Shown here: piece by piece, positions 4,312-46,362 of the stretch
Layout of the letters: every line of letters begins with the position of its first letter
Position numbering within the stretch: the stretch's first letter is position 1
Program-made: the position numbers and the translations under genes
Assembly: GCF_053078305.1 (NCBI RefSeq)
Contig: NZ_CP166879.1
Direction: 5' to 3' (one strand)
Length of the DNA: 64,000 bases
Notes under the pieces: model-generated
The model's database searches: none
What the model saw: only the letters and a program-made list of their open reading frames with translations
What the model was told of the DNA's origin: nothing

Positions 4312-5052
4312 ATGTCAGTTATTGGTCGCATTCACTCCTTTGAATCCTGTGGAACCGTAGACGGCCCAGGTATTCGCTTTATCACCTTTTTCCAGGGCTG
4401 CCTGATGCGCTGCCTGTATTGTCATAACCGCGACACCTGGGACACGCATGGCGGTAAAGAAGTTACCGTTGAAGATTTGATGAAGGAAGTGGTGACCTAT
4501 CGCCACTTTATGAACGCTTCCGGCGGCGGCGTTACCGCATCCGGCGGTGAAGCAATCCTGCAAGCTGAGTTTGTTCGTGACTGGTTCCGCGCCTGTAAAA
4601 AAGAAGGCATTCATACCTGTCTGGATACCAACGGTTTTGTTCGTCGTTACGATCCGGTGATTGATGAACTGCTGGAAGTAACCGACCTGGTAATGCTCGA
4701 TCTCAAACAGATGAACGACGAGATCCACCAAAATCTGGTTGGAGTTTCCAACCACCGCACGCTGGAGTTCGCTAAATATCTGGCGAACAAAAATGTGAAG
4801 GTGTGGATCCGCTACGTTGTTGTCCCAGGCTGGTCTGACGATGACGATTCAGCGCATCGCCTCGGTGAATTTACCCGTGATATGGGTAACGTTGAGAAAA
4901 TCGAACTTCTCCCCTACCACGAACTGGGCAAACACAAATGGGTGGCGATGGGTGAAGAATACAAACTCGATGGTGTTAAACCACCGAAGAAAGAAACTAT
5001 GGAACGCGTGAAAGGCATTCTTGAGCAGTACGGTCATAAGGTAATGTTCTAA
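4312..5052 (+). CDS. pflA: Pyruvate formate-lyase activating enzyme (radical SAM)
   Basis: 246 aa from [23 protein letters not shown]; CxxxCxxC-type radical SAM cysteine cluster ([10 protein letters not shown]); track ORF starts 9 codons upstream. Confidence 0.92.
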
Positions 5053-12964: not shown

Positions 12965-13263
12965 AATGGCTCACTCAAGCTTGCTCACGATTGATTCCAG
13001 TAACAAACCGTATTGTGTAATTATTTCTATAGCAGATCGCTATATAGGCTTGTATACATCGAATAATTTGAAAATCAAAGAGATAGGTAGATTTTCACTC
13101 GAAAGTAGTATTACGTGTAAGTGAGGAGTAATTATTGTTCGGTATCAAAGGGAGACAAAAAAAGCGCCCGCAGGAGGTTTAACGCTACTTACTCCCCTTG
13201 ATGATTTGCTTATTTTTCAATGAGTAAATCAAAACAAGGGGAGCAAATAAGCACAAGTTACAA

Positions 13264-14256
13264 CTAATCGATGGACAGTTTATGGACACTTTCAGCCAGC
13301 GGATTAAAGCTGATTGCATCCTGTAAAAAGTCCGGCGAAAAATGCGCATACGTCATCGTTTGTTGAATCGTGGCATGGCCCAGGATTCGTTGTAGCGTAA
13401 CGATATTTCCGCCATTCATCATGAAATGTGTAGCGAATGTATGACGCATGACATGGGTGGCCTGCCCTTTCGGTAAGTCCGGCTTCACCTCCTGAAGGAT
13501 CTCCCGAAATCTGAGGTAATCAGCCTGGTACAACAATCCGGTTCTGCGGGTTTTAATTAACGCAAGTACCGCATCAGAAACGGGAACGGCGCGAGATTTT
13601 CCGTTCTTGGTGTTAAAGAACATCACGCGGTTACCTACAATATGTTCCCCACGTAAACCAGCTGCTTCACCCCACCTTGCCCCCGTGGAAAGACACAGAA
13701 TGGCAACACGCCGCGCATCTCCATCGAGTCGTTCAAGCAGTCGTTCAATCTCCTCATCTGAAAGAAAGGCCATCTCTGTGTTCCTGACTTTCAGCTTACG
13801 TATTCCCCGAACCGGGTTTTCGTTATGGAACACCTCACCCTCAATCAGCGAGCTGAACATTGCAGACAAGGCACACAAATCGCGGTTAATGCTGGAAGGC
13901 ATTAACCCGGCCTGTAATTTGTCGGACCGGTACCCGAGCATAAATTTTCGCGTCATCTGACTGGCACGAGGATCACCCATCTCACGGTTTATCTTTTCCA
14001 GTCTGACCCTGTAGGTATCCCCGTAATCCTGGTTACGACCATCAAGCAACCACCAGGCCTCTATCAGTTCGGATAACCGACGCTGATCTGCTGGCTTAGC
14101 CTGCCATGGCTTATCATGAAAATTCTGCAAAACATACCTTTCAAACTCCTGCGCCTTTGACTTCAGGGTAAAAATCTTACGAATCCGCTTTCCTTCCGTC
14201 CCTTGTGGCCTTACATCAACCTTATAACGTCCGTCTTTGAGTTGCTTAATCGACAT
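13264..14256 (-). CDS. int: Phage integrase, tyrosine recombinase (P2 Int-like)
   Basis: N-terminus MSIKQLKDGRYKVDVRPQGTEGKRIRK closely resembles P2 Int; C-terminal catalytic region HVMRHTFATHFMMNGGNIVTLQRILGH...TMTYAH; track ORF begins at an upstream TTG. Confidence 0.9.
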   Translation of the reverse strand: MSIKQLKDGRYKVDVRPQGTEGKRIRKIFTLKSKAQEFERYVLQNFHDKPWQAKPADQRRLSELIEAWWLLDGRNQDYGDTYRVRLEKINREMGDPRASQMTRKFMLGYRSDKLQAGLMPSSINRDLCALSAMFSSLIEGEVFHNENPVRGIRKLKVRNTEMAFLSDEEIERLLERLDGDARRVAILCLSTGARWGEAAGLRGEHIVGNRVMFFNTKNGKSRAVPVSDAVLALIKTRRTGLLYQADYLRFREILQEVKPDLPKGQATHVMRHTFATHFMMNGGNIVTLQRILGHATIQQTMTYAHFSPDFLQDAISFNPLAESVHKLSID

Positions 14257-23014: not shown

Positions 23015-24088
23015 TTACCCGACCGGCACCACTTTTTCTTCCGCCACATGCCCGGCTTCCACATCAAAACGAAGATAAAGGTGTTCCGGTATATCGGGAT
23101 CGCTGTTCACGGCGTTCATGATTTTACGCTGAAGCGGTATCACCTCATCCTTGCGGTACGTTTCACGCGTCGTTTCCGGGTTAGGGATGGTGGCCCCGTT
23201 CGTGGGGATGATCCCCGCAAGACCGGCAGGAAAGCGGTGTGCCGTAAACACATCCTGGGCGCTGATCCCCTTGATGTTTGAAAATTCATCCTTGGCGCTC
23301 ACCTCACCAATCGGAATAATTTTCACCCCATCCGGCGAACCTTTGGGGATGTTGATGTACAGATTGCGGAAATTTCCCAGCCCCTTAGACTCCGCCACCT
23401 TCTCGCGGATCTCATCCTCCATCTCCGTGGTGATCCCAGGGTCGTTCGTATACAGCAAAAAGCCCATATGCGCCCCGTTGTTGTAGTAACGGCGACGAAA
23501 AAGGCTGGCCTCGCTGTTCAGCAGCGCCGAGTGAATGCCACCGATATAATCCGGCAGCCCGTAAATTTGCTGACGCGGATCATACATCCGCAGAAAGATA
23601 ATATCTTCCGGCGTATAGACCAGCGCGGGACCTTCCTGAAGCACCACGAACTCACCGGTTTTGCGGCGCCGGAGATACAGCGACGGAAGCGGCTCAAGTG
23701 CCACGACGTCGCCGAATACGTTACGCACCTTGAGCAGGGCGAGATCGCCGAACAACAGGTAGTCAAATACCGCCTGTTCCATCTGGTCCGTTGTGAGGCC
23801 ACCACCGGTATAGCCCCCCGCCACCATGTTACGGCGGGCATACAGCACCCCACCGTGCTGGGCGTTAAGGTTCGGGAGCTGCGCCAGTGCCAGGCGGTTA
23901 ATCGGCAGCTGCCAGTGGTTGTGTTCGTTGTCATACCAGATGTTATGGTAGTCCGTGCCGGTGGTCAGCACCGGTTCCGGCTGACCAAACGTGATTGTGC
24001 TGCCACGTGCGGGCGTGAATGCTTTTTTCGTCACGCGTGACGTTTTGTTTCTGCGTTTCTTGCTCATGCGGCTTTCCCGAAGGCCCAT
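23015..24088 (-). CDS. Portal (capsid vertex) protein, P2 gpQ-like
   Basis: 357 aa; size and position upstream of terminase ATPase on same strand as in P2 Q-P; family assignment by recall. Confidence 0.6.
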   Translation of the reverse strand: MGLRESRMSKKRRNKTSRVTKKAFTPARGSTITFGQPEPVLTTGTDYHNIWYDNEHNHWQLPINRLALAQLPNLNAQHGGVLYARRNMVAGGYTGGGLTTDQMEQAVFDYLLFGDLALLKVRNVFGDVVALEPLPSLYLRRRKTGEFVVLQEGPALVYTPEDIIFLRMYDPRQQIYGLPDYIGGIHSALLNSEASLFRRRYYNNGAHMGFLLYTNDPGITTEMEDEIREKVAESKGLGNFRNLYINIPKGSPDGVKIIPIGEVSAKDEFSNIKGISAQDVFTAHRFPAGLAGIIPTNGATIPNPETTRETYRKDEVIPLQRKIMNAVNSDPDIPEHLYLRFDVEAGHVAEEKVVPVG

Positions 24089-25890
24089 GTGGACGGGCGT
24101 TCATAGTCATAATCTACAGGCTCATTAATCACGGCGTGCGAAATGGCAAAAAACACATCCGCATGCCCCGTAACATCCGACCGTTCCGCCACGAACGTCA
24201 GCGCGTTACCGCTTTTTGTGGTGGTGCGGCGTATGGACATGAACGACGCGGGGATCTCCGTGCGTTCACGGCTGGCCTCATCAATGGCGTCTTTCGCCCA
24301 CTCGATACGCTTATGGGCCACCACGTCTATCATTTTCATCACCAGGCGGTTTTTGCTCTCCACGCTGTAAAGAATGGCGTTAGCCTCACGTGGCGCAAAG
24401 CGACTGACGATATCAAACACCCCTTTCCCGATACCGGTGATATCTATGCCGATATAGGTAATGTTAAAGCGCTGCATCAGTTCGCGGATCTGATCGGCCT
24501 GCCAGGTGAAGTTAAATCCCTGCCACTGCCAGACGGCGAGTACACGGAACCGCTCGCCCTCATGGACAGGCGGAGCCACAATCACAAACGTGGAATTATC
24601 CCCGGACCTTGACGGGTCAAAGCCCGCCCATACCTCACGATTGCCGAACGGACGTGCCGCCGTGGGATCGTAGTCACCCCACGTCTCCATCTCCACCTCG
24701 CACCTGACCAGTTCGGAGAACTTAAATACCGCATCCTTGCTGTCAACAAACTCGCAGCCGTACAGCATCGCATAGGTGGTCGGGTTGTAGCGGTTCCTGA
24801 TACGTTCAATATCAACCCGTGCAGACAGGCCACCCGCCACCGCCTCTTCCAGCCGGATAATGTAGCGCCAGATCCCGTCAGGGCATTCACAGCCCACACG
24901 CATCGCGCTTTCTTTCGGAAACTCAACCGCACGACGCGCCGGGTCATCCCCGCGCCAGTCGTCACCATTCCAGACCAGATAAGCCTGGTGGGTTTTGGCG
25001 CTGGGTGTGGAAAAATACGTCGTGCGGTATTTGTCGTGGGTCGCCATTGCCGAGGCCACTTCATGCAGTCGCGTGAATTTTGGGATCCAGAACACCTCAT
25101 CGCCGTAAAGGTGGCCGTTAAATCCCTGGGCGGTGCTGACATTGGTGGACAGGAAGCGCAGCATTGCACCATTGCTCAGACGGATATGCTTACCCGTGAG
25201 CGTGATCCCAAACTGCAGGGCGAAGTTAATAATATATTCACGAAAGATTTCCGCCTGTACCCGTGACGCAGAAAAGAAAATCTGGTTATCACCGGTCACC
25301 ACCGCATCTTCGAACGCTTCCCATGCAAAATACCAGGTCATGCCGATCTGGCGGCTCTTGAGGATGAAACGGCGCTCACGGTGCCGGTTCTCGCGGCAGT
25401 GCAGCTGGTAGGCATAAAGATTTTTACGCGCCCATTCATCCAGCATTTCAGCAGTCAGTCCGGAAACGTCGTTTTTCCGGTAGCGCCGCTTTTTCCCTTC
25501 TCCCCCGCCGCAGGTCCCCGCAGCCGCGCCGTCCTCATACCCTGCCGGACGCAGGGCGGCAATTTCCGCCATCCTTTCAGCGTGTTTGTTTTTCTGGGCG
25601 ATGATCTTCACGTGCTGCGCGATAAGTTCACGCAGTTCGGCAAGTTCACACTCTGTCTTGCCCTCCCGTCCGGTCAGCACATCAATACGCCGGGCGATCA
25701 CGTCCTCAACGGATTCAGCGGGCAGCAGGGCGGCCCACTGCCCCACATCACACCAGTGGTAAACCGTGCGCGGCGGAATACCGAGTTCCGCCGCAATATC
25801 GCGGGGGTGCCACCGCTTCAGGTAAAGCGATCGCGCCGCCTCTTTGATTTCGTCAGAATATTTAGCCATGCGCCCATTATGGCGGCGCAT
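24064..25890 (-). CDS. Terminase large (ATPase) subunit, P2 gpP-like
   Basis: 608-aa ORF; N-terminal HTH-like segment (RDIAAELGIPPRTVYHWC); divergent from scaffold/capsid genes as in P2; true start may be MAKYSDEIK. Confidence 0.65.
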   Translation of the reverse strand: MRRHNGRMAKYSDEIKEAARSLYLKRWHPRDIAAELGIPPRTVYHWCDVGQWAALLPAESVEDVIARRIDVLTGREGKTECELAELRELIAQHVKIIAQKNKHAERMAEIAALRPAGYEDGAAAGTCGGGEGKKRRYRKNDVSGLTAEMLDEWARKNLYAYQLHCRENRHRERRFILKSRQIGMTWYFAWEAFEDAVVTGDNQIFFSASRVQAEIFREYIINFALQFGITLTGKHIRLSNGAMLRFLSTNVSTAQGFNGHLYGDEVFWIPKFTRLHEVASAMATHDKYRTTYFSTPSAKTHQAYLVWNGDDWRGDDPARRAVEFPKESAMRVGCECPDGIWRYIIRLEEAVAGGLSARVDIERIRNRYNPTTYAMLYGCEFVDSKDAVFKFSELVRCEVEMETWGDYDPTAARPFGNREVWAGFDPSRSGDNSTFVIVAPPVHEGERFRVLAVWQWQGFNFTWQADQIRELMQRFNITYIGIDITGIGKGVFDIVSRFAPREANAILYSVESKNRLVMKMIDVVAHKRIEWAKDAIDEASRERTEIPASFMSIRRTTTKSGNALTFVAERSDVTGHADVFFAISHAVINEPVDYDYERPSTWAFGKAA

Positions 25891-28142: not shown

Positions 28143-28841
28143 ATGACACCCTGCCAGCGACACCGGGCGAAAATCCGCACACAGGAGGCACTCGAACGCC
28201 GGGAGGCGCTGACGGCCTCCCCGGTCAGCTTCCACCTGTTACGCGCGGAGCTTGATCGCGATGTGGCACGGCTGCGCAGTCTTCCGGTCCGTGAAGAGCG
28301 GCTGGCGTTCAAGCGCGACATTCTCCTGCCGCGCTGGCTGCCCGTCGCGGAGCGCTATATCGCTGACGGAAAGCGCCACGCCTGCCCGGTACTGGTGTAC
28401 TGCATCATCTGGCTGTTCGACACGGGCGACCTGAGTCGCGCCCTTGACTGGGCAGACATTGCCATCAGTGAAGGCCAGGCCACGCCGGACAACTTCCGCA
28501 GCACCCTGCCCGCCTTCGTGGCAGACACGGTGCTGCAGTGGGCCACCGACAACAGCGAGGCCGGACACAGCATAGAACCGTATTTTTCGCGCACCTTCAG
28601 GAACGTCACCACCTCGTGGCGGCTGCATGAGGAAATCCGCGCGAAGTGGTTCAGATTTGCCGGGCTGTATCTTCTGCGCGACGAGGCGGGCAAACCGAGA
28701 GCCACCGCGATTAATGATACTGCCGTACTGGAAAAGGCAGACGCATACCTGGCACAGGCGGCAGCACTGAGCCGTACCGCTGGCGTAAAAAGTATCAGGG
28801 CGCGCATCAGGGCACGCATCAGCGCCCTTAATGCAGCGTAA
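28143..28841 (+). CDS. Terminase small/endonuclease subunit, P2 gpM-like
   Basis: 232-aa ORF in the P2 M position after capsid gene. Confidence 0.5.
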   Translation: MTPCQRHRAKIRTQEALERREALTASPVSFHLLRAELDRDVARLRSLPVREERLAFKRDILLPRWLPVAERYIADGKRHACPVLVYCIIWLFDTGDLSRALDWADIAISEGQATPDNFRSTLPAFVADTVLQWATDNSEAGHSIEPYFSRTFRNVTTSWRLHEEIRAKWFRFAGLYLLRDEAGKPRATAINDTAVLEKADAYLAQAAALSRTAGVKSIRARIRARISALNAA

Positions 28842-42725: not shown

Positions 42726-44399
42726 ATGAACCCCACTAAACGTCTGTTACTGGGTAACGACACCATTCAGCTGGTCAGCTGTTCCGTCATGCTTGAGCTG
42801 AACGCGTGCGGACGCGGATTTATCACGGCCAGAACGGAGCAGAACTACACCGGGCGCCCTGTTCGTCTCGATATCGGATACGGAAACGACCTGGTGCGCT
42901 GGTTTACCGGATACGTTGAACGCAGCCAGCCCGCTGAAAACGGCTCGGTGCGGCTTCTGATTCGTGAAATGGCGGGGATCCTTGATCACCCCTTCCCCTG
43001 TTCATTTCAGCACCCGACAATGCGCACGGTCACACAGTGGCTGAGTGAGACCAGCGGGCTGGAAATCATCCTGCCGGACAACGCGGCTTACACTGACAGA
43101 CCCGTTCCGCATTTCACGCACAGCGGCACGGGCTACGAACTGCTGGCCAGTCTGGGGCGTATTTTCTCCGTACCGGACTACATCTGGCATCCGTTACCGG
43201 ACGGCGGCATTATGGCCGCTGCCGCCGCGCAGGGGATGTTTTCCGGTCGCCCCGTCACCATCCCGCACGAGTTCAGCCAGGCATCAACGGGCGGACACAG
43301 TATGACCCTCCCGATGATTCAGACGCTGCGACCGGGTGTGGAGGTGAACGGTCAGCGCCTGACGATGGTCATGCTGGAAGATGACAACATGACCATCACG
43401 TGGACACCACGCAATAAAGCCACCGGCGCCCCCCTCCAGAAGTCCCCTTTCCGTCGCCAGGCTGAAAAGGCCTTCCCTGAACTGGCATCAGGGCTTCACC
43501 TGCCCAAACTGGCACGTGTTGAGGCGCCGACCGAAGCCGTCAGCGCGGGCAATATTGCCGACCCGTTCAGACCCCGCTACGCGGTGAATCTCCAGCTGCT
43601 TGACGAGAACGGCAACCCGGCAGCGGATACGCCCGTTTATAACGCCGTTCCCCTCCCCGTTCCTATGGCGGGCAGTGAGTCCGGCATGTTCCAGTTCCCG
43701 CCCCCCGGAACCCTGGTGGAAGTGGGATTTGTGGAAGGCCGGGCGGATAAGCCCTTCATCCGCCAGATAATGGCAGAGGGCCACAATCTGCCCGACGTGA
43801 AGCCGGGCGAGCAGTTGCAGCAACAGCGCGACGGCGTATCGCAGCGCGTGACGGTCGCCGGAGACTGGGAGCGCCAGACAGACCAGCGGATACAGGAGAC
43901 ATCACGCGAGCGCGTGGTGAGCGCAGACGAGGAGACGCGGAGCCTGACCAGCCGGGAGACCACCATACAGGCAACCGACACAACCACCGTCCTGGGCGTA
44001 TCCACGCTTCAGGCTGGCGCAGTCACCCATATCACTGAAGAGAACTACAGCATCAGCACGGGCGGGCACATGATGGTGGTTGCCGGTACCTGTGAGCGCG
44101 ACGTGGAAGGCGACACACTGGACACCGTGGGCGGCAGCCTTACCGAAAAGATTAAGGGCGTCCGTCACAGTATTGCGCAGGCGCAGAAGCTGGTTGGCGA
44201 TACGGTGAAGCTGGGAAACGAGGGCATTAATGTACTGACCATGCTGACGGACCTTGCCGATGTGGTGGAAGAGCTGGCCGATATTACGGCATCACATACC
44301 CACCCCAAAACGGGCACGTCTCCGCAGGCCGCACAGTTCAGCCAGGTCGCTCAGGAGTGCCGCCAGCTTAAAAATAAATATTCACCAATAATCGAATAA
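42726..44399 (+). CDS. Putative baseplate hub / central spike protein
   Basis: 557 aa; C-terminal region with histidine motif ITASHTHP resembling iron-binding spike tips (P2 gpV-type); last gene before non-coding right arm. Confidence 0.35.
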   Translation: MNPTKRLLLGNDTIQLVSCSVMLELNACGRGFITARTEQNYTGRPVRLDIGYGNDLVRWFTGYVERSQPAENGSVRLLIREMAGILDHPFPCSFQHPTMRTVTQWLSETSGLEIILPDNAAYTDRPVPHFTHSGTGYELLASLGRIFSVPDYIWHPLPDGGIMAAAAAQGMFSGRPVTIPHEFSQASTGGHSMTLPMIQTLRPGVEVNGQRLTMVMLEDDNMTITWTPRNKATGAPLQKSPFRRQAEKAFPELASGLHLPKLARVEAPTEAVSAGNIADPFRPRYAVNLQLLDENGNPAADTPVYNAVPLPVPMAGSESGMFQFPPPGTLVEVGFVEGRADKPFIRQIMAEGHNLPDVKPGEQLQQQRDGVSQRVTVAGDWERQTDQRIQETSRERVVSADEETRSLTSRETTIQATDTTTVLGVSTLQAGAVTHITEENYSISTGGHMMVVAGTCERDVEGDTLDTVGGSLTEKIKGVRHSIAQAQKLVGDTVKLGNEGINVLTMLTDLADVVEELADITASHTHPKTGTSPQAAQFSQVAQECRQLKNKYSPIIE

Positions 44400-44411
44400 T
44401 TATTCACTTTA

Positions 44412-44440
44412 ACAGGCCGCGCAATGTGGCCTTTTTTATT
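44412..44440 (+). terminator. Rho-independent terminator after last tail gene
   Basis: Hairpin ggccgcgcaatgtggcc followed by TTTTTT. Confidence 0.55.
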
Positions 44441-44459
44441 CCCGGACAATAAAAAATAT

Positions 44460-45100
44460 TCATCACCGGACATCACCCACCACGAAAAAACCGTCCGCAG
44501 CAGAAAAAAAGATGGACGAAACGCCCCACGTAATCCCCACGTAAAACGTCGCGTAACGCCACGTAACGAAGAGATAACCCCGCCAGCCCGATTCGATCCC
44601 CTGACATCAGAAAACGATTTCTGCGCCCCAAAATCGCCGCAAATGGCCGGAAATTTTCGGGGGCGACGTAACGCGTAAAGTGACGTAATCGGCGCTACCC
44701 CGCACACGCCTCCGGTATTTGTGTACGATAAATTTTGCAAATCGAAAGGGGTGCAAAACACCCCTCCAGGGCGCGCCATTACTGAGTTTTTCCCTTCTGA
44801 ATGGTTTTGCACTTTGTGCAAGGTTTTGCAAAAGTGTGCAAAAACTCCGGCTTTCTGAGGATCCCGAAAAATTTTAATGCACTGAATAACAAGAGATTTT
44901 TAAAATTACGTCACGATCGAAGATCTGAAAAAGGATCCGACGACGAAAACGAAAAAATCAGGAAAGCCAGAACTGGCGCGGTCTGGCGGGGAGTGGCAGC
45001 AAAAATCACTTTTGCACACTTTTGCACAACTGCTCCGAAAAAGGATGGCGAAGGGGAAGGAAAACAGCCACGTCATCCGTTGCACGTAACGGACGTAAAA
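44460..45100. repeat. Non-coding iteron array (ACGTAA-type and TTTTGCAC/GTGCAAAA-type short repeats)
   Basis: At least 10 copies of (c/g)acgtaa(c) at 44528-44690 and 45070-45100; direct/inverted ttttgca(c/a) copies at 44735-44850 and 45010-45030; no credible ORF. Confidence 0.6.
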
Positions 45101-45105
45101 GGTAA

Positions 45106-45463
45106 ATTACGCGCGGGTGCCTTTCGGCTGACGGCTGGAAGGAATACCTGAAGGCCGGATGTGAAAAGGCCCCGAGTCAACTAACGTTAACCCGAGGCCC
45201 TGACACTTCCTACCTGACAAGTGGAAGGTTAGCGCCTCCCTGTAAAAGGAGTCAAGCGCTATGCCGCAAAAAACGATCATAGTGAGCATTTTATGCATAA
45301 CTATTTTGATGATTGTCTGGATGATACACACGTCACCGTGTGAGTTCAGGCTTAACATCATGTGGTCACAATTTGCGGCGTTCTTGCAGTGTAAACAGTA
45401 AGAAACCGCAGCGGGGGTGAAAGCCCCCGCTATCCGGTTGCCGGGTTCGGTCGATATGGCACC
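45106..45463 (+). repeat. Copy 1 of ~360-bp duplicated module carrying a small hydrophobic-peptide gene (type I toxin-like locus)
   Basis: Near-identical to 45826..46186 (about 90% by eye); starts attacgcgcgggtgcctttcgg, ends at GC hairpin gcgggggtgaaagcccccgc. Confidence 0.7.
45261..45401 (+). CDS. 46-aa hydrophobic peptide, Hok/Gef-like candidate type I toxin (copy 1)
   Basis: MPQKTIIVSILCITILMIVWMIHTSPCEFRLNIMWSQFAAFLQCKQ; AGGAG RBS 8 nt upstream; single TM then Cys-containing tail, as in Hok family; highly structured leader. Confidence 0.45.
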   Translation: MPQKTIIVSILCITILMIVWMIHTSPCEFRLNIMWSQFAAFLQCKQ

Positions 45464-45516
45464 TTTTCTCCATTGGATTACAGACGTATTTGCCCGCGAC
45501 ATGCGGGCCTTTTTGT

Positions 45517-45720
45517 TCAGTTGTATTTATTGTGGTCGTTACTGGCAGTGGCATTAACTGATTTTGCATGAATAGCACAAATTTTTTCCACGATAACACC
45601 ACACGCTTCAAGGTCTTCCGGGCGTGAAACCTTTATTTTTGTAATAGTCTCAGGATTATCAGCCGTTCCACTTTGCACAACCTCAATTTCAATTTTTTTT
45701 CTTGAAAGAATCATTTTCAT
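45517..45720 (-). CDS. Hypothetical small protein (67 aa) between the two duplicated modules
   Basis: ATG-initiated ORF in AT-rich spacer; weak SD. Confidence 0.25.
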   Translation of the reverse strand: MKMILSRKKIEIEVVQSGTADNPETITKIKVSRPEDLEACGVIVEKICAIHAKSVNATASNDHNKYN

Positions 45721-45825
45721 CGCCCCGACACAGGACAGAGTAAGCCTGTGCGAAAGAATATCACCAGTGCGATAGCGTTGTCTGCTTCAACGCCAGGCAT
45801 TGCGCACACAAAGGGAAATCAGTAC

Positions 45826-46186
45826 ATTACACGCGGGTGCCTTTCGGCTGATGGCTGGAAGGATTACCTGAAGGCCGGATGTGGAAAGGCCCCGAGTCAA
45901 CTTTAATGTTAACCCGAGGCCCTGACCATCTACCCTAAGCAAGTGGAAGGTTAGCGCCTCCCTGTAAAAGGAGTCAAGCGCTATGCCGCAAAAAACGATC
46001 ATCGTGAGCATTTTATGCTTAACCATGTTGTTGACCGTCTGGATGATACACCGTTCTCCGTGTGAGTTCAGGCTTAACATCATGTGGTCAGAATTTGCGG
46101 CGTTCTTGCAGTGTAAACCGTAAGAAACCGCAGCGGGGGTGAAAGCCCCCGCTATCCGGTTGCCAAAGGTTCGGTCGAAAGTCGCA
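45826..46186 (+). repeat. Copy 2 of ~360-bp duplicated module (type I toxin-like locus)
   Basis: Direct repeat of 45106..45463 with scattered substitutions. Confidence 0.7.
45983..46123 (+). CDS. 46-aa hydrophobic peptide, Hok/Gef-like candidate type I toxin (copy 2)
   Basis: MPQKTIIVSILCLTMLLTVWMIHRSPCEFRLNIMWSEFAAFLQCKP; same RBS and frame as copy 1; differences are mostly conservative. Confidence 0.45.
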   Translation: MPQKTIIVSILCLTMLLTVWMIHRSPCEFRLNIMWSEFAAFLQCKP

Positions 46187-46238: not shown

Positions 46239-46362
46239 GGCTTTTTTGTTTCAAAGATGGACGTTATCTGGACACATGAAAATAAAAAATCTTTATTTTC
46301 AATATGTTAACCACCCACTAAAACCACCCGCAGGCGCTTTTTAGATTCAGAAAAATTAGGTA

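Follow-up and report, generated by a model that had tools for sequence, protein, structure and literature searches.

A probable cos DNA-packaging region in the repeat-rich right arm of an HP1-type P2-family prophage of Escherichia coli

The cos (cohesive-end) site of phage P2 adjoins the portal gene Q and has a 19-nt overhang, GGCGAGGCGGGGAAAGCAC, while phage P4 has only the cos core in common with P2 (PMC9594776, PMC9122126). Past this core of 55 bp, recognition by P2-family terminases is poorly defined. In both P2 and P4, a cargo or defence hotspot adjoins cos (PMC9122126). For HP1, one of the Peduoviridae phages with an HP1-type cos site (HP1/HP2, phiO18P, ESSI-2, SI7/SW5), cohesive ends of 7 nt are given (PMC4893331), and no analysis of the repeats in this subgroup, nor of the cos site of ESSI-2 or SI7, was found in the open literature. 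The stretch considered here comprises positions 44460-45100 of a 64,000-nt window (the whole piece of E. coli chromosome that was analyzed; assembly GCF_053078305.1, contig NZ_CP166879.1), in which two classes of short repeats, ACGTAA and TTTGCA, lie beyond the last gene of a prophage. According to its comparison with related phages, the segment 44520-45100 is very probably the cos DNA-packaging region of this inducible-looking P2-family prophage of the HP1/phiO18P/ESSI-2 type.

The assignment is based primarily on the predicted cohesive-end sequence CTACCCCGCACACGCC, which, in its local context cggcg-CTACCCCGCACACGCC-tccgg, aligned column for column with the ends of related phage genomes and with their flanks, CGGCG being conserved immediately before the core and CTCC or CTGC immediately after it. 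The record of Cronobacter phage ESSI-2 carries the 15-nt sequence CTACACCGCACCCGC at both ends, the annotated cosL/cosR of Aeromonas phage phiO18P is the 16-nt sequence CTCATCCGCTCCCGCC, and the SW5 record ends in ...CGGCGCTACACCGC and starts with GCACCCGCCTGC...; the ends of the ESSI-2 and SW5 records were taken as virion ends, since they coincide with each other and with the annotated cos of phiO18P. The position of the core is syntenic as well, namely, after the last baseplate gene (a homolog of HP1 orf35) and before attP and int. It lies 295 bp past the stop codon of this gene (161-218 bp in relatives, longer in those with inserts), and the genomes of HP2, phiO18P, SW5 and ESSI-2 end 196, 200, 175 and 198 bp, respectively, after the orf35 homolog, with attP and int located at the other end (int of HP2 begins 699 bp from the left end). 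Among 80 IMG/VR loci encoding an orf35 homolog with 58-100% identity, the core was present in all 70 that had enough downstream sequence; it was invariant outside the E. coli lineage, which carries two substitutions. Since the core aligns with the recorded ends and occurs in all 70 loci, the region is considered to sit on the phage cos site. By analogy with the ESSI-2 and phiO18P records, the overhang would be 15-16 nt long and of the same polarity as in these phages.

It should be noted that the SI7 record (MK972712.1; L003 ~4885-4895) reads ..aacggcg-gcacccgcc.. at this place and is without the CTACACC found in SW5, ESSI-2 and all of the prophage relatives. The 7 bases were probably lost by collapse of the cohesive virion ends during assembly, which fits the location of the ends at the core site. 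A first candidate for cos, 44970-44995, which resembles the P2 overhang, was dropped, the ends of ESSI-2, SW5 and phiO18P placing the homolog at 44695-44710; the GC box at 44970-44995 is one arm of a conserved inverted repeat.

The locus has in common with the other HP1-type sites its position, a homologous core of 15-16 bp, right-end repeats of the CACG(G/T)AA type and, at the left end, T-rich repeats with GCA or CAG, a GC box and GATC. It differs from them at two core positions, in a right-end motif that reads GACGTAA and not GACGGAA, and in having an extra array (array A) and an extra distal ACGTAA pair; the gene and cos are also ~120 bp farther apart. The sites of P2, 186 and P4 are similar to it in the terminase families (gpM, PF05944, and a gpP-like large subunit, TerL), in a GC-rich core with a CCCCGCC-like element, in being common to phages and satellites (PMC9594776, PMC9122126), and in cos-adjacent cargo (hok/sok here and AbiH in a sister prophage), whereas the present site lies beside attP, at the opposite extremity of the late region, and the span that phages and satellite-like elements have in common is ~190 bp here versus ~55 bp in P2/P4. 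The kind of element is well known; this member of it has a lineage-specific core and repeat dialect.

In the cos site of phage lambda, repeated sites for the small terminase subunit and a segment prone to bending flank the nick site asymmetrically, and the genome end that is packaged last carries an element upstream. The lambda arrangement (cosQ-cosN-cosB, R sites and a site for integration host factor, IHF) is comparable in outline only, with no sequence or protein homology; it spans ~200 bp and has one repeat class, whereas here there are ~570 bp, two repeat classes and, on inspection of the AT-rich block by eye, no convincing match to the IHF consensus, WATCAANNNNTTR.

The dense array of ACGTAA-core motifs that the initial annotation had described was recovered as eight exact copies in 44528-45098, both strands considered (34 in the 64-kb window), and the strings quoted in it lie where it had placed them. 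The CGTAA core occurred nine times in forward orientation (44529, 44540, 44552, 44562, 44667, 44674, 44684, 45085 and 45094) and once inverted (44906). The clustering of direct and inverted TTTGCA/TGCAAA motifs, described there as well, was also found, with 9 of the 39 copies in the window falling within 44734-45026. Relative to 2000 dinucleotide-preserving shuffles of 44460-45100 itself, both densities were well above background (8 observed versus a mean of 0.31 for ACGTAA, and 9 versus a mean of 0.76 for TTTGCA), and none of the 2000 shuffles was as high for either motif. The copies were phased: the CGTAA spacing in the first array was 11, 12 and 10 bp, and the TGCA cores at 44808, 44817, 44827 and 44838 followed one another in steps of ~10 bp. 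The view that this stretch holds no credible open reading frame (ORF) was borne out by a PHROG search of the annotated 116-aa frame (44801-45151), which gave no match, by the related phages, where no conserved open frame was found at the same place, and by an Rfam scan of 44400-45100, which gave nothing; in some relatives, a hypothetical protein is annotated in RefSeq over 44816-45151, its length differing or the annotation being missing from one relative to another. The label "P2-like" and the placement in the right arm were equally correct, the prophage (~13175-46330) being a member of the P2 family of the HP1/phiO18P/ESSI-2 type. To the elements listed in the initial annotation, the cos core, GC-rich inverted boxes, a GATC-rich AT block and a 10-bp inverted pair were added (Table 1).

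Table 1. Features of the predicted cos region, its cognate terminase genes and the adjoining attachment site (positions in the window; I1, I2 and I9, inverted repeats)
Feature	Position	Strand	Details
Terminase large subunit	24064-25890	-	Pfam Terminase_5, HTH_23, Terminase_6N, Terminase_6C
Terminase small subunit, P2 gpM family	28143-28841	+	PF05944, E = 3.9e-36; phrog_74
Rho-independent terminator of the tail/baseplate operon	44414-44432	+	Hairpin AGGCCGCGCAATGTGGCCT, then T-run; directly after the stop of the orf35 homolog
Array A, four CGTAA-core units CCCCACGTAA, CCCCACGTAA, TCGCGTAA, GCCACGTAA	44524-44568	+	10-12 bp phased
GC box CCCCGCCAGCCCG	44578-44590	+	Extra copy of the inverted GC box; 92% complementary to 44979-44991 (I9)
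Array B, GACGTAA-CGCGTAA-AGTGACGTAA	44665-44689	+	Motif R; abuts the predicted cut site
cos core CTACCCCGCACACGCC	44695-44710		Predicted cohesive-end (staggered nick) sequence, by homology to the ends of relatives
First motif L pair TTTTGCAAA, GGTGCAAAA	44733-44757
Left GC-rich inverted box (..CCCCTCCAGGGCGCGCCA..)	44758-44789		Inverted repeat I1 with 44963-44994
Main motif L array, four TGCA-core sites TTTTGCAC, TTGTGCAA, TTTTGCAAAA, GTGCAAAAA	44805-44845		Steps of ~10 bp
AT-rich central block	44859-44940		Four GATC: 44860, 44915, 44922, 44934
Conserved AATGCACTGAATAAC	44876-44890		In the AT block; recognisable even in HP2
Inverted motif R copy ATTACGTCAC	44905-44914		In the AT block
Right GC-rich inverted box (..CTGGCGCGGTCTGGCGGGGAG..)	44963-44994		I1, I9; SI7-type form GCGCGGGCTGGCGGGGAG
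Two direct motif L copies TTTTGCACAC, TTTTGCACA	45010-45028	+	Inverted relative to 44823-44843, 95% complementary (I2)
Distal ACGTAA pair GCACGTAACGGACGTAAAAGG	45084-45098	+	Outer edge of the cos module; lineage-specific
Cargo slot between the cos module and attP	45107-46160	+	Not part of cos function
hok ORFs	45261-45401 and 45983-46123		Two tandem hok/sok-type toxin-antisense modules in the cargo slot
Integrase arm-type direct repeats ATGGACGTTATCTGGACAC (P' arm)	46257-46275	+	Partner ATGGACAGTTTATGGACAC at 13271-13289
attR core CCCGCAGG, 8 bp	46327-46334		attL copy at 13167-13174

On the right-end side, motif R (here GACGTAA / CCACGTAA) is present at the predicted cut site, in the phased upstream array and once in inverted orientation ~200 bp downstream, where ATTACGTCAC forms a perfect 10-bp inverted pair (I15) with GTGACGTAAT (44680-89). 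In the alignment, array B corresponds to two copies of GACGGAA in SI7-type phages, three copies of CCACGGAA in phiO18P, three copies of CCACGGAAA with two of ACGTAA in HP2, and GACAAAA in ESSI-2-type phages. The inverted copy follows the R motif of its own lineage, reading TTTCCGTCAC in SI7-type phages, TTTCCGTGG in phiO18P and TTTTCCGTG in HP2. Array A lies ~130-170 bp ahead of the predicted cut site, and its counterparts in the alignment of relatives are blocks of the form GCGTAAAACG..CTGTAACGCC or CCAGAC..CACAGAACGC; the adjoining GC box is likewise present in SI7-type phages, as CCCCGCCAGCC. Within the E. coli lineage, for which 10 sequences were compared, one exact 10-bp unit of array A, CGTAACGCCA (44552-44561), was lost in three (L222, L223 and L224), and the array also showed point changes. 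Array A is thus tolerated at three or four copies; it is probably accessory.

On the left-end side, copies of motif L (TTTTGCA / TGCAAAA), phased at 10 bp, form arrays that flank a block rich in AT and in GATC. The first pair aligns with TTTTGCAAAAG..TTTTGYGCAAA in SI7-type and with TTTTTCAG in ESSI-2-type phages, and the GC box after it is kept as ..CCGCCAGCCYGCGCC.. in relatives, including the satellite-like elements described below. The main array corresponds to TTTGCAC-N-GCGCAA-N-TTTGCAG-N-TTGCAAAA in SI7-type phages and to AACTGAAAAG-N-TGAAAAG-N-TTTCAG-N-TTTTTCAG in ESSI-2-type phages and satellite-like elements, while the two direct copies at 45010-45028 align with TTTTGCAAAAnnnTGCGCA in SI7-type phages. 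The distal ACGTAA pair was kept in all 10 same-lineage sequences, relatives being not alignable there; the alignment with relatives ends ~350 bp past the core, at the start of variable cargo.

The comparison was extended to 64 unique cos regions, which were aligned or scanned. Both repeat classes hold their position across these 64 relatives, and their sequence switches by lineage. The left-side hexamers are TGCAAA/GCAAAA, with 4-10 copies per 400 bp, in the E. coli lineage and in SI7-type phages, and CTGAAA/TGAAAA (TTTCAG/CTGAAA), with 4-7 copies at the same aligned positions, in ESSI-2-type phages. On the right-end side, the G-to-T switch between GACGGAA (SI7-type) and GACGTAA (here) affects both direct copies as well as the inverted copy 200 bp away, which is TTACGTCAC here as compared with TTTCCGTCAC in SI7-type phages. 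The switching of the L motif and the coordinated change of the R motif argue that the repeats would be read by proteins co-evolving with them. Phased copies of a short motif flanking the cut site and conserved in position among relatives, as found here, are a feature of small-terminase recognition arrays such as the R sites of lambda cosB or the pac repeats of SPP1 and P1. The within-lineage comparison gave a concordant distribution of changes: there were no variable positions in array B together with the core (44662-44710), in the TGCA array (44801-44848) or in 45006-45047 (the TTTTGCAC pair), one in the AT/GATC block (92 bp), and 7-16% in the surrounding spacers, the GC boxes and the hok/sok leader.

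Elements resembling satellites carry the core of a sister lineage, the ESSI-2 type. IMG/VR was scanned with the invariant enterobacterial core; among 80 of the stretches that matched, an orf35 homolog was located just upstream of the core in 62 and was absent in 11. One of these 11, L148 (IMGVR_UViG_2778261380_000011), has an integrase and two cargo ORFs ahead of the core and, behind it, an Ogr/Delta-like regulator, a primase resembling P4 alpha and a P2-type major head protein of its own. Judged from partial contigs, it resembles a satellite. Similar elements are L101, L104, L113, L118, L119, L124, L151, L162 and L174; like L148, they have no orf35 homolog beside the core, terminase genes not being searched for in any of these loci. 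These elements possibly belong to a family of satellites tied specifically to ESSI-2-type helper phages. An alignment of eight of them, on incomplete contigs, with eight ESSI-2-type phages revealed conservation that was confined to the segment between about -12 (GACMAAAWYSGCR) and about +175 relative to the core, including the TTTTCAG arrays and the GC box, with unrelated sequence farther upstream, and the proximal motif R unit was the only upstream element retained. Retention of only the segment from -12 to +175 matches the expectation for an element dependent on the terminase of a helper. This comparison points to the proximal R unit and the left-side L arrays as the putative recognition module and suggests that the distal ACGTAA array may be accessory. 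No satellite-like element with the core of the E. coli lineage was found in complete E. coli genomes or in IMG/VR.

The same prophage encodes a cognate P2-type terminase composed of gpM-like and gpP-like subunits (Table 1). TerL contains an N-terminal gpP-like (homeodomain-like) helix-turn-helix at residues 14-69, followed by an ATPase domain and an RNaseH-like nuclease, and also weakly matches PHROG small-terminase and DNA-binding families. Thus, gpM and the helix-turn-helix of TerL are candidate readers of the repeats. During lytic growth, gpM and the large subunit would assemble on the phased arrays, and the repeats would serve for recognition and for the architecture of the complex. With the inverted GC boxes and the inverted L and R sites on its two sides, the AT-rich block could permit a bend or loop, so that the oligomeric terminase, possibly together with a host bending protein, might wind the DNA around itself or fold it into a loop and bring the nuclease into place, which would then nick both strands in a staggered manner within 44695-44710. 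Such an arrangement would be similar to that of cosB/cosQ in lambda or of the hexamer arrays in P1 pac. The ACGTAA-rich side, next to the orf35 homolog, would become the right end of the virion DNA and the TTTGCA-rich side the left end. In this scheme, binding of the repeats by the terminase, the assignment of motifs to subunits, the packaging direction, and the length and polarity of the overhang are all read from sequence. As a tentative extension, on which we place little confidence, the ~570-bp module may be regarded as a packaging-specificity code read by gpM and the TerL helix-turn-helix, in which the repeat switches and the two core substitutions would isolate phage lineages and satellites from cross-packaging, and the GATC cluster might, through methylation, gate cleavage as in P1 pac.

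Several observations weigh against the interpretation of the region as a cos site with terminase-read repeats. In ESSI-2-type phages, the proximal unit is GACAAAA and does not match the inverted unit, TTTTACGTG, which weakens a simple model of one protein and one motif. The copy number of array A varies and the array is absent from satellite-like elements, so that this ACGTAA array may be dispensable for recognition. The conserved left module, at ~350 bp, is far larger than the 55-bp cos shared by P2 and P4 (PMC9594776), and its size indicates that it may have a second function. When gpM and the TerL helix-turn-helix were examined for covariation with the motif type in this phage, SI7 and ESSI-2, the identity of gpM to its SI7 and ESSI-2 counterparts was 68% and 54%, and that of TerL 76% and 56%, respectively; these values follow overall divergence and do not single out either subunit as the reader, tempting as it would be to pair the two motif classes with the two DNA-binding modules. 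No report of P2-family terminase binding to such repeats was found in the literature, and the cut site, the overhang and the inducibility of this prophage are predictions.

The initial annotation had offered four functions for the repeats, of which the packaging (cos-associated) site is upheld by the homology to virion ends, and the integrase arm, the origin and the partition site are opposed by the presence of other arm repeats, of a gpA nickase, and by the absence of ParA/ParB, respectively. A further explanation keeps the cos site and adds to it a layer of control, in which the GATC cluster would tie cleavage or packaging to Dam, to a phage methylase or to SeqA; we consider it rather doubtful. 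The pac site of P1 offers a parallel, in that clusters of short, phased, GATC-containing repeats flank the cleavage point and methylases are phage-encoded, although P1 packages by the headful mechanism and its TGATCA/G hexamer is the repeat itself, whereas GATC is separate from the main repeats here. GATC on the left side was enriched across the 64 relatives (mean of 3.8 per 385 bp, compared with ~3.6-4.0 per kb in the prophage and the window) at conserved positions, and DNA methyltransferases are encoded by this prophage (32519-33271), SI7 (Dam-family), ESSI-2 and HP1 (PMC7556043); however, the local enrichment in 44460-45100 is modest (5 versus a shuffle mean of 1.75, with 44 of the 2000 shuffles as high), and GATC is missing altogether from the interval in some relatives.

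An iteron-type or secondary replication origin, in which initiator arrays surround an AT/GATC-rich unwinding element, is highly unlikely. The phased repeats in both orientations around the AT-rich block, its four GATC in 75 bp and the flanking GC-rich inverted boxes are what such an origin would look like, but the only initiator of the prophage is a rolling-circle nickase of the P2 gpA type (phrog_91, E = 8e-237), an iteron-binding Rep and a DnaA-like protein both being absent, and the center of the module coincides with recorded virion ends. Furthermore, an origin is expected to be initiator-specific, and the module is common to satellite-like elements that use a different replication protein, the P4 alpha-like primase, which disfavours this explanation. 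A very low probability, of the same order, is given to promoters or operators, a small RNA, or a protein gene serving the hok/sok cargo or the late transcript. The hypothetical protein that RefSeq places here in relatives and a hairpin with a T-tract on the minus strand (44747-44765) speak for such a role; nevertheless, the scan of the region for sigma-70-like promoters gave none against 2.1 expected, no Ogr-type late-promoter element (TGT-N12-ACA) was found in it, the Rfam result was empty, the 116-aa ORF is unconserved, variably annotated and without a PHROG match, and the module is conserved beside differing cargo (AbiH, other ORFs, satellite genes).

Arm-type sites at which integrase or excisionase (Int or Cox) would bind the repeats to form the intasome are still less probable. 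The region does lie on the attR side, and cos and attP occupy one intergenic interval in this phage family, but the att core is 1.2-1.9 kb away, past two hok/sok modules, and distinct repeats with the consensus ATGGAC-N-TGGACAC are present beside it on both arms, matching TGTGGAC in the SI7 attP (TGTGGACGCTTTGTGGACAC, TGTGGACACAATGTGGACAC). ACGTAA and TTTGCA are absent from the P arm near attL, and the repeats keep their spacing to the cos core and not to attP as the intervening cargo varies. A plasmid-like partition (centromere) site or incompatibility determinant, suggested by the resemblance of clustered direct and inverted short repeats to parS/parC arrays, can practically be dismissed, given an element integrated via a tyrosine integrase, an array centered on the cos core, and no ParA, ParB, ParM or ParR gene in the prophage or in an annotated near-identical relative.

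If the region is the cos site, a stretch that is unannotated or mis-annotated in RefSeq as a hypothetical protein is settled, and the virion map is fixed for a rare E. coli prophage lineage. The three motif dialects, the deletions of unit copies and the satellite-like elements with ~190 bp in common constitute a natural mutational series for the way in which the terminase reads its site, and the same information is needed for cosmids or transducing particles of this phage group. The hok/sok cargo is also placed in a cos-adjacent hotspot as known for P2 and P4.

The repeat region was detected in 11 of 5426 complete E. coli genomes, every time together with the orf35-homolog gene. Two copies of the prophage lineage each, judged by matches to the baseplate gene and the cos region, were observed in NZ_CP067426.1, NZ_CP148318.1 and NZ_AP045167.1. 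In the window, the chromosomal order is pflB ... dmsABC, the prophage, and serS rarA lolA ftsK. The P2-type genes of the prophage are int, C, cox, gpA (nicking endonuclease), Ogr, portal, terminase large subunit, scaffold, capsid and gpM, and its tail module is HP1-type; the last gene (42726-44399), the orf35 homolog of HP1/HP2, has 38-67% identity to those of HP2, phiO18P, ESSI-2 and SI7. Homology to prophage-free genomes stops at 13174-13180, and mapping of where the homology to K-12 ends served to locate the 8-bp att core, no direct repeat of at least 12 bp being found between the prophage ends. The integration point is the loop of the bidirectional dmsA/serS terminator hairpin, which reads AAAAGCGCC-CGCA-GGCGCTTTT in the empty site.

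With its hok/sok modules, the slot that separates the cos module from attP fits the hotspot for cargo beside cos that is known from P2 and P4 (PMC9122126). Sok-like Rfam matches at 45115-45272 and 45835-45994 were both under the gathering score. A 67-aa ORF on the minus strand between the hok modules (45517-45720) weakly matched phrog_14142 (E = 1.4e-6), a family of unknown function, and its counterpart in strain 2013C-3033 is annotated as hypothetical. In relatives, the number of hok/sok copies ranged from one to three, strain N51 having three hok genes. In the SI7-type prophage located beside yegQ in E. coli 2011C-4251 (NZ_CP027388.1; L096 9431-10396), the place between cos and attR is occupied by an AbiH-family abortive-infection gene.

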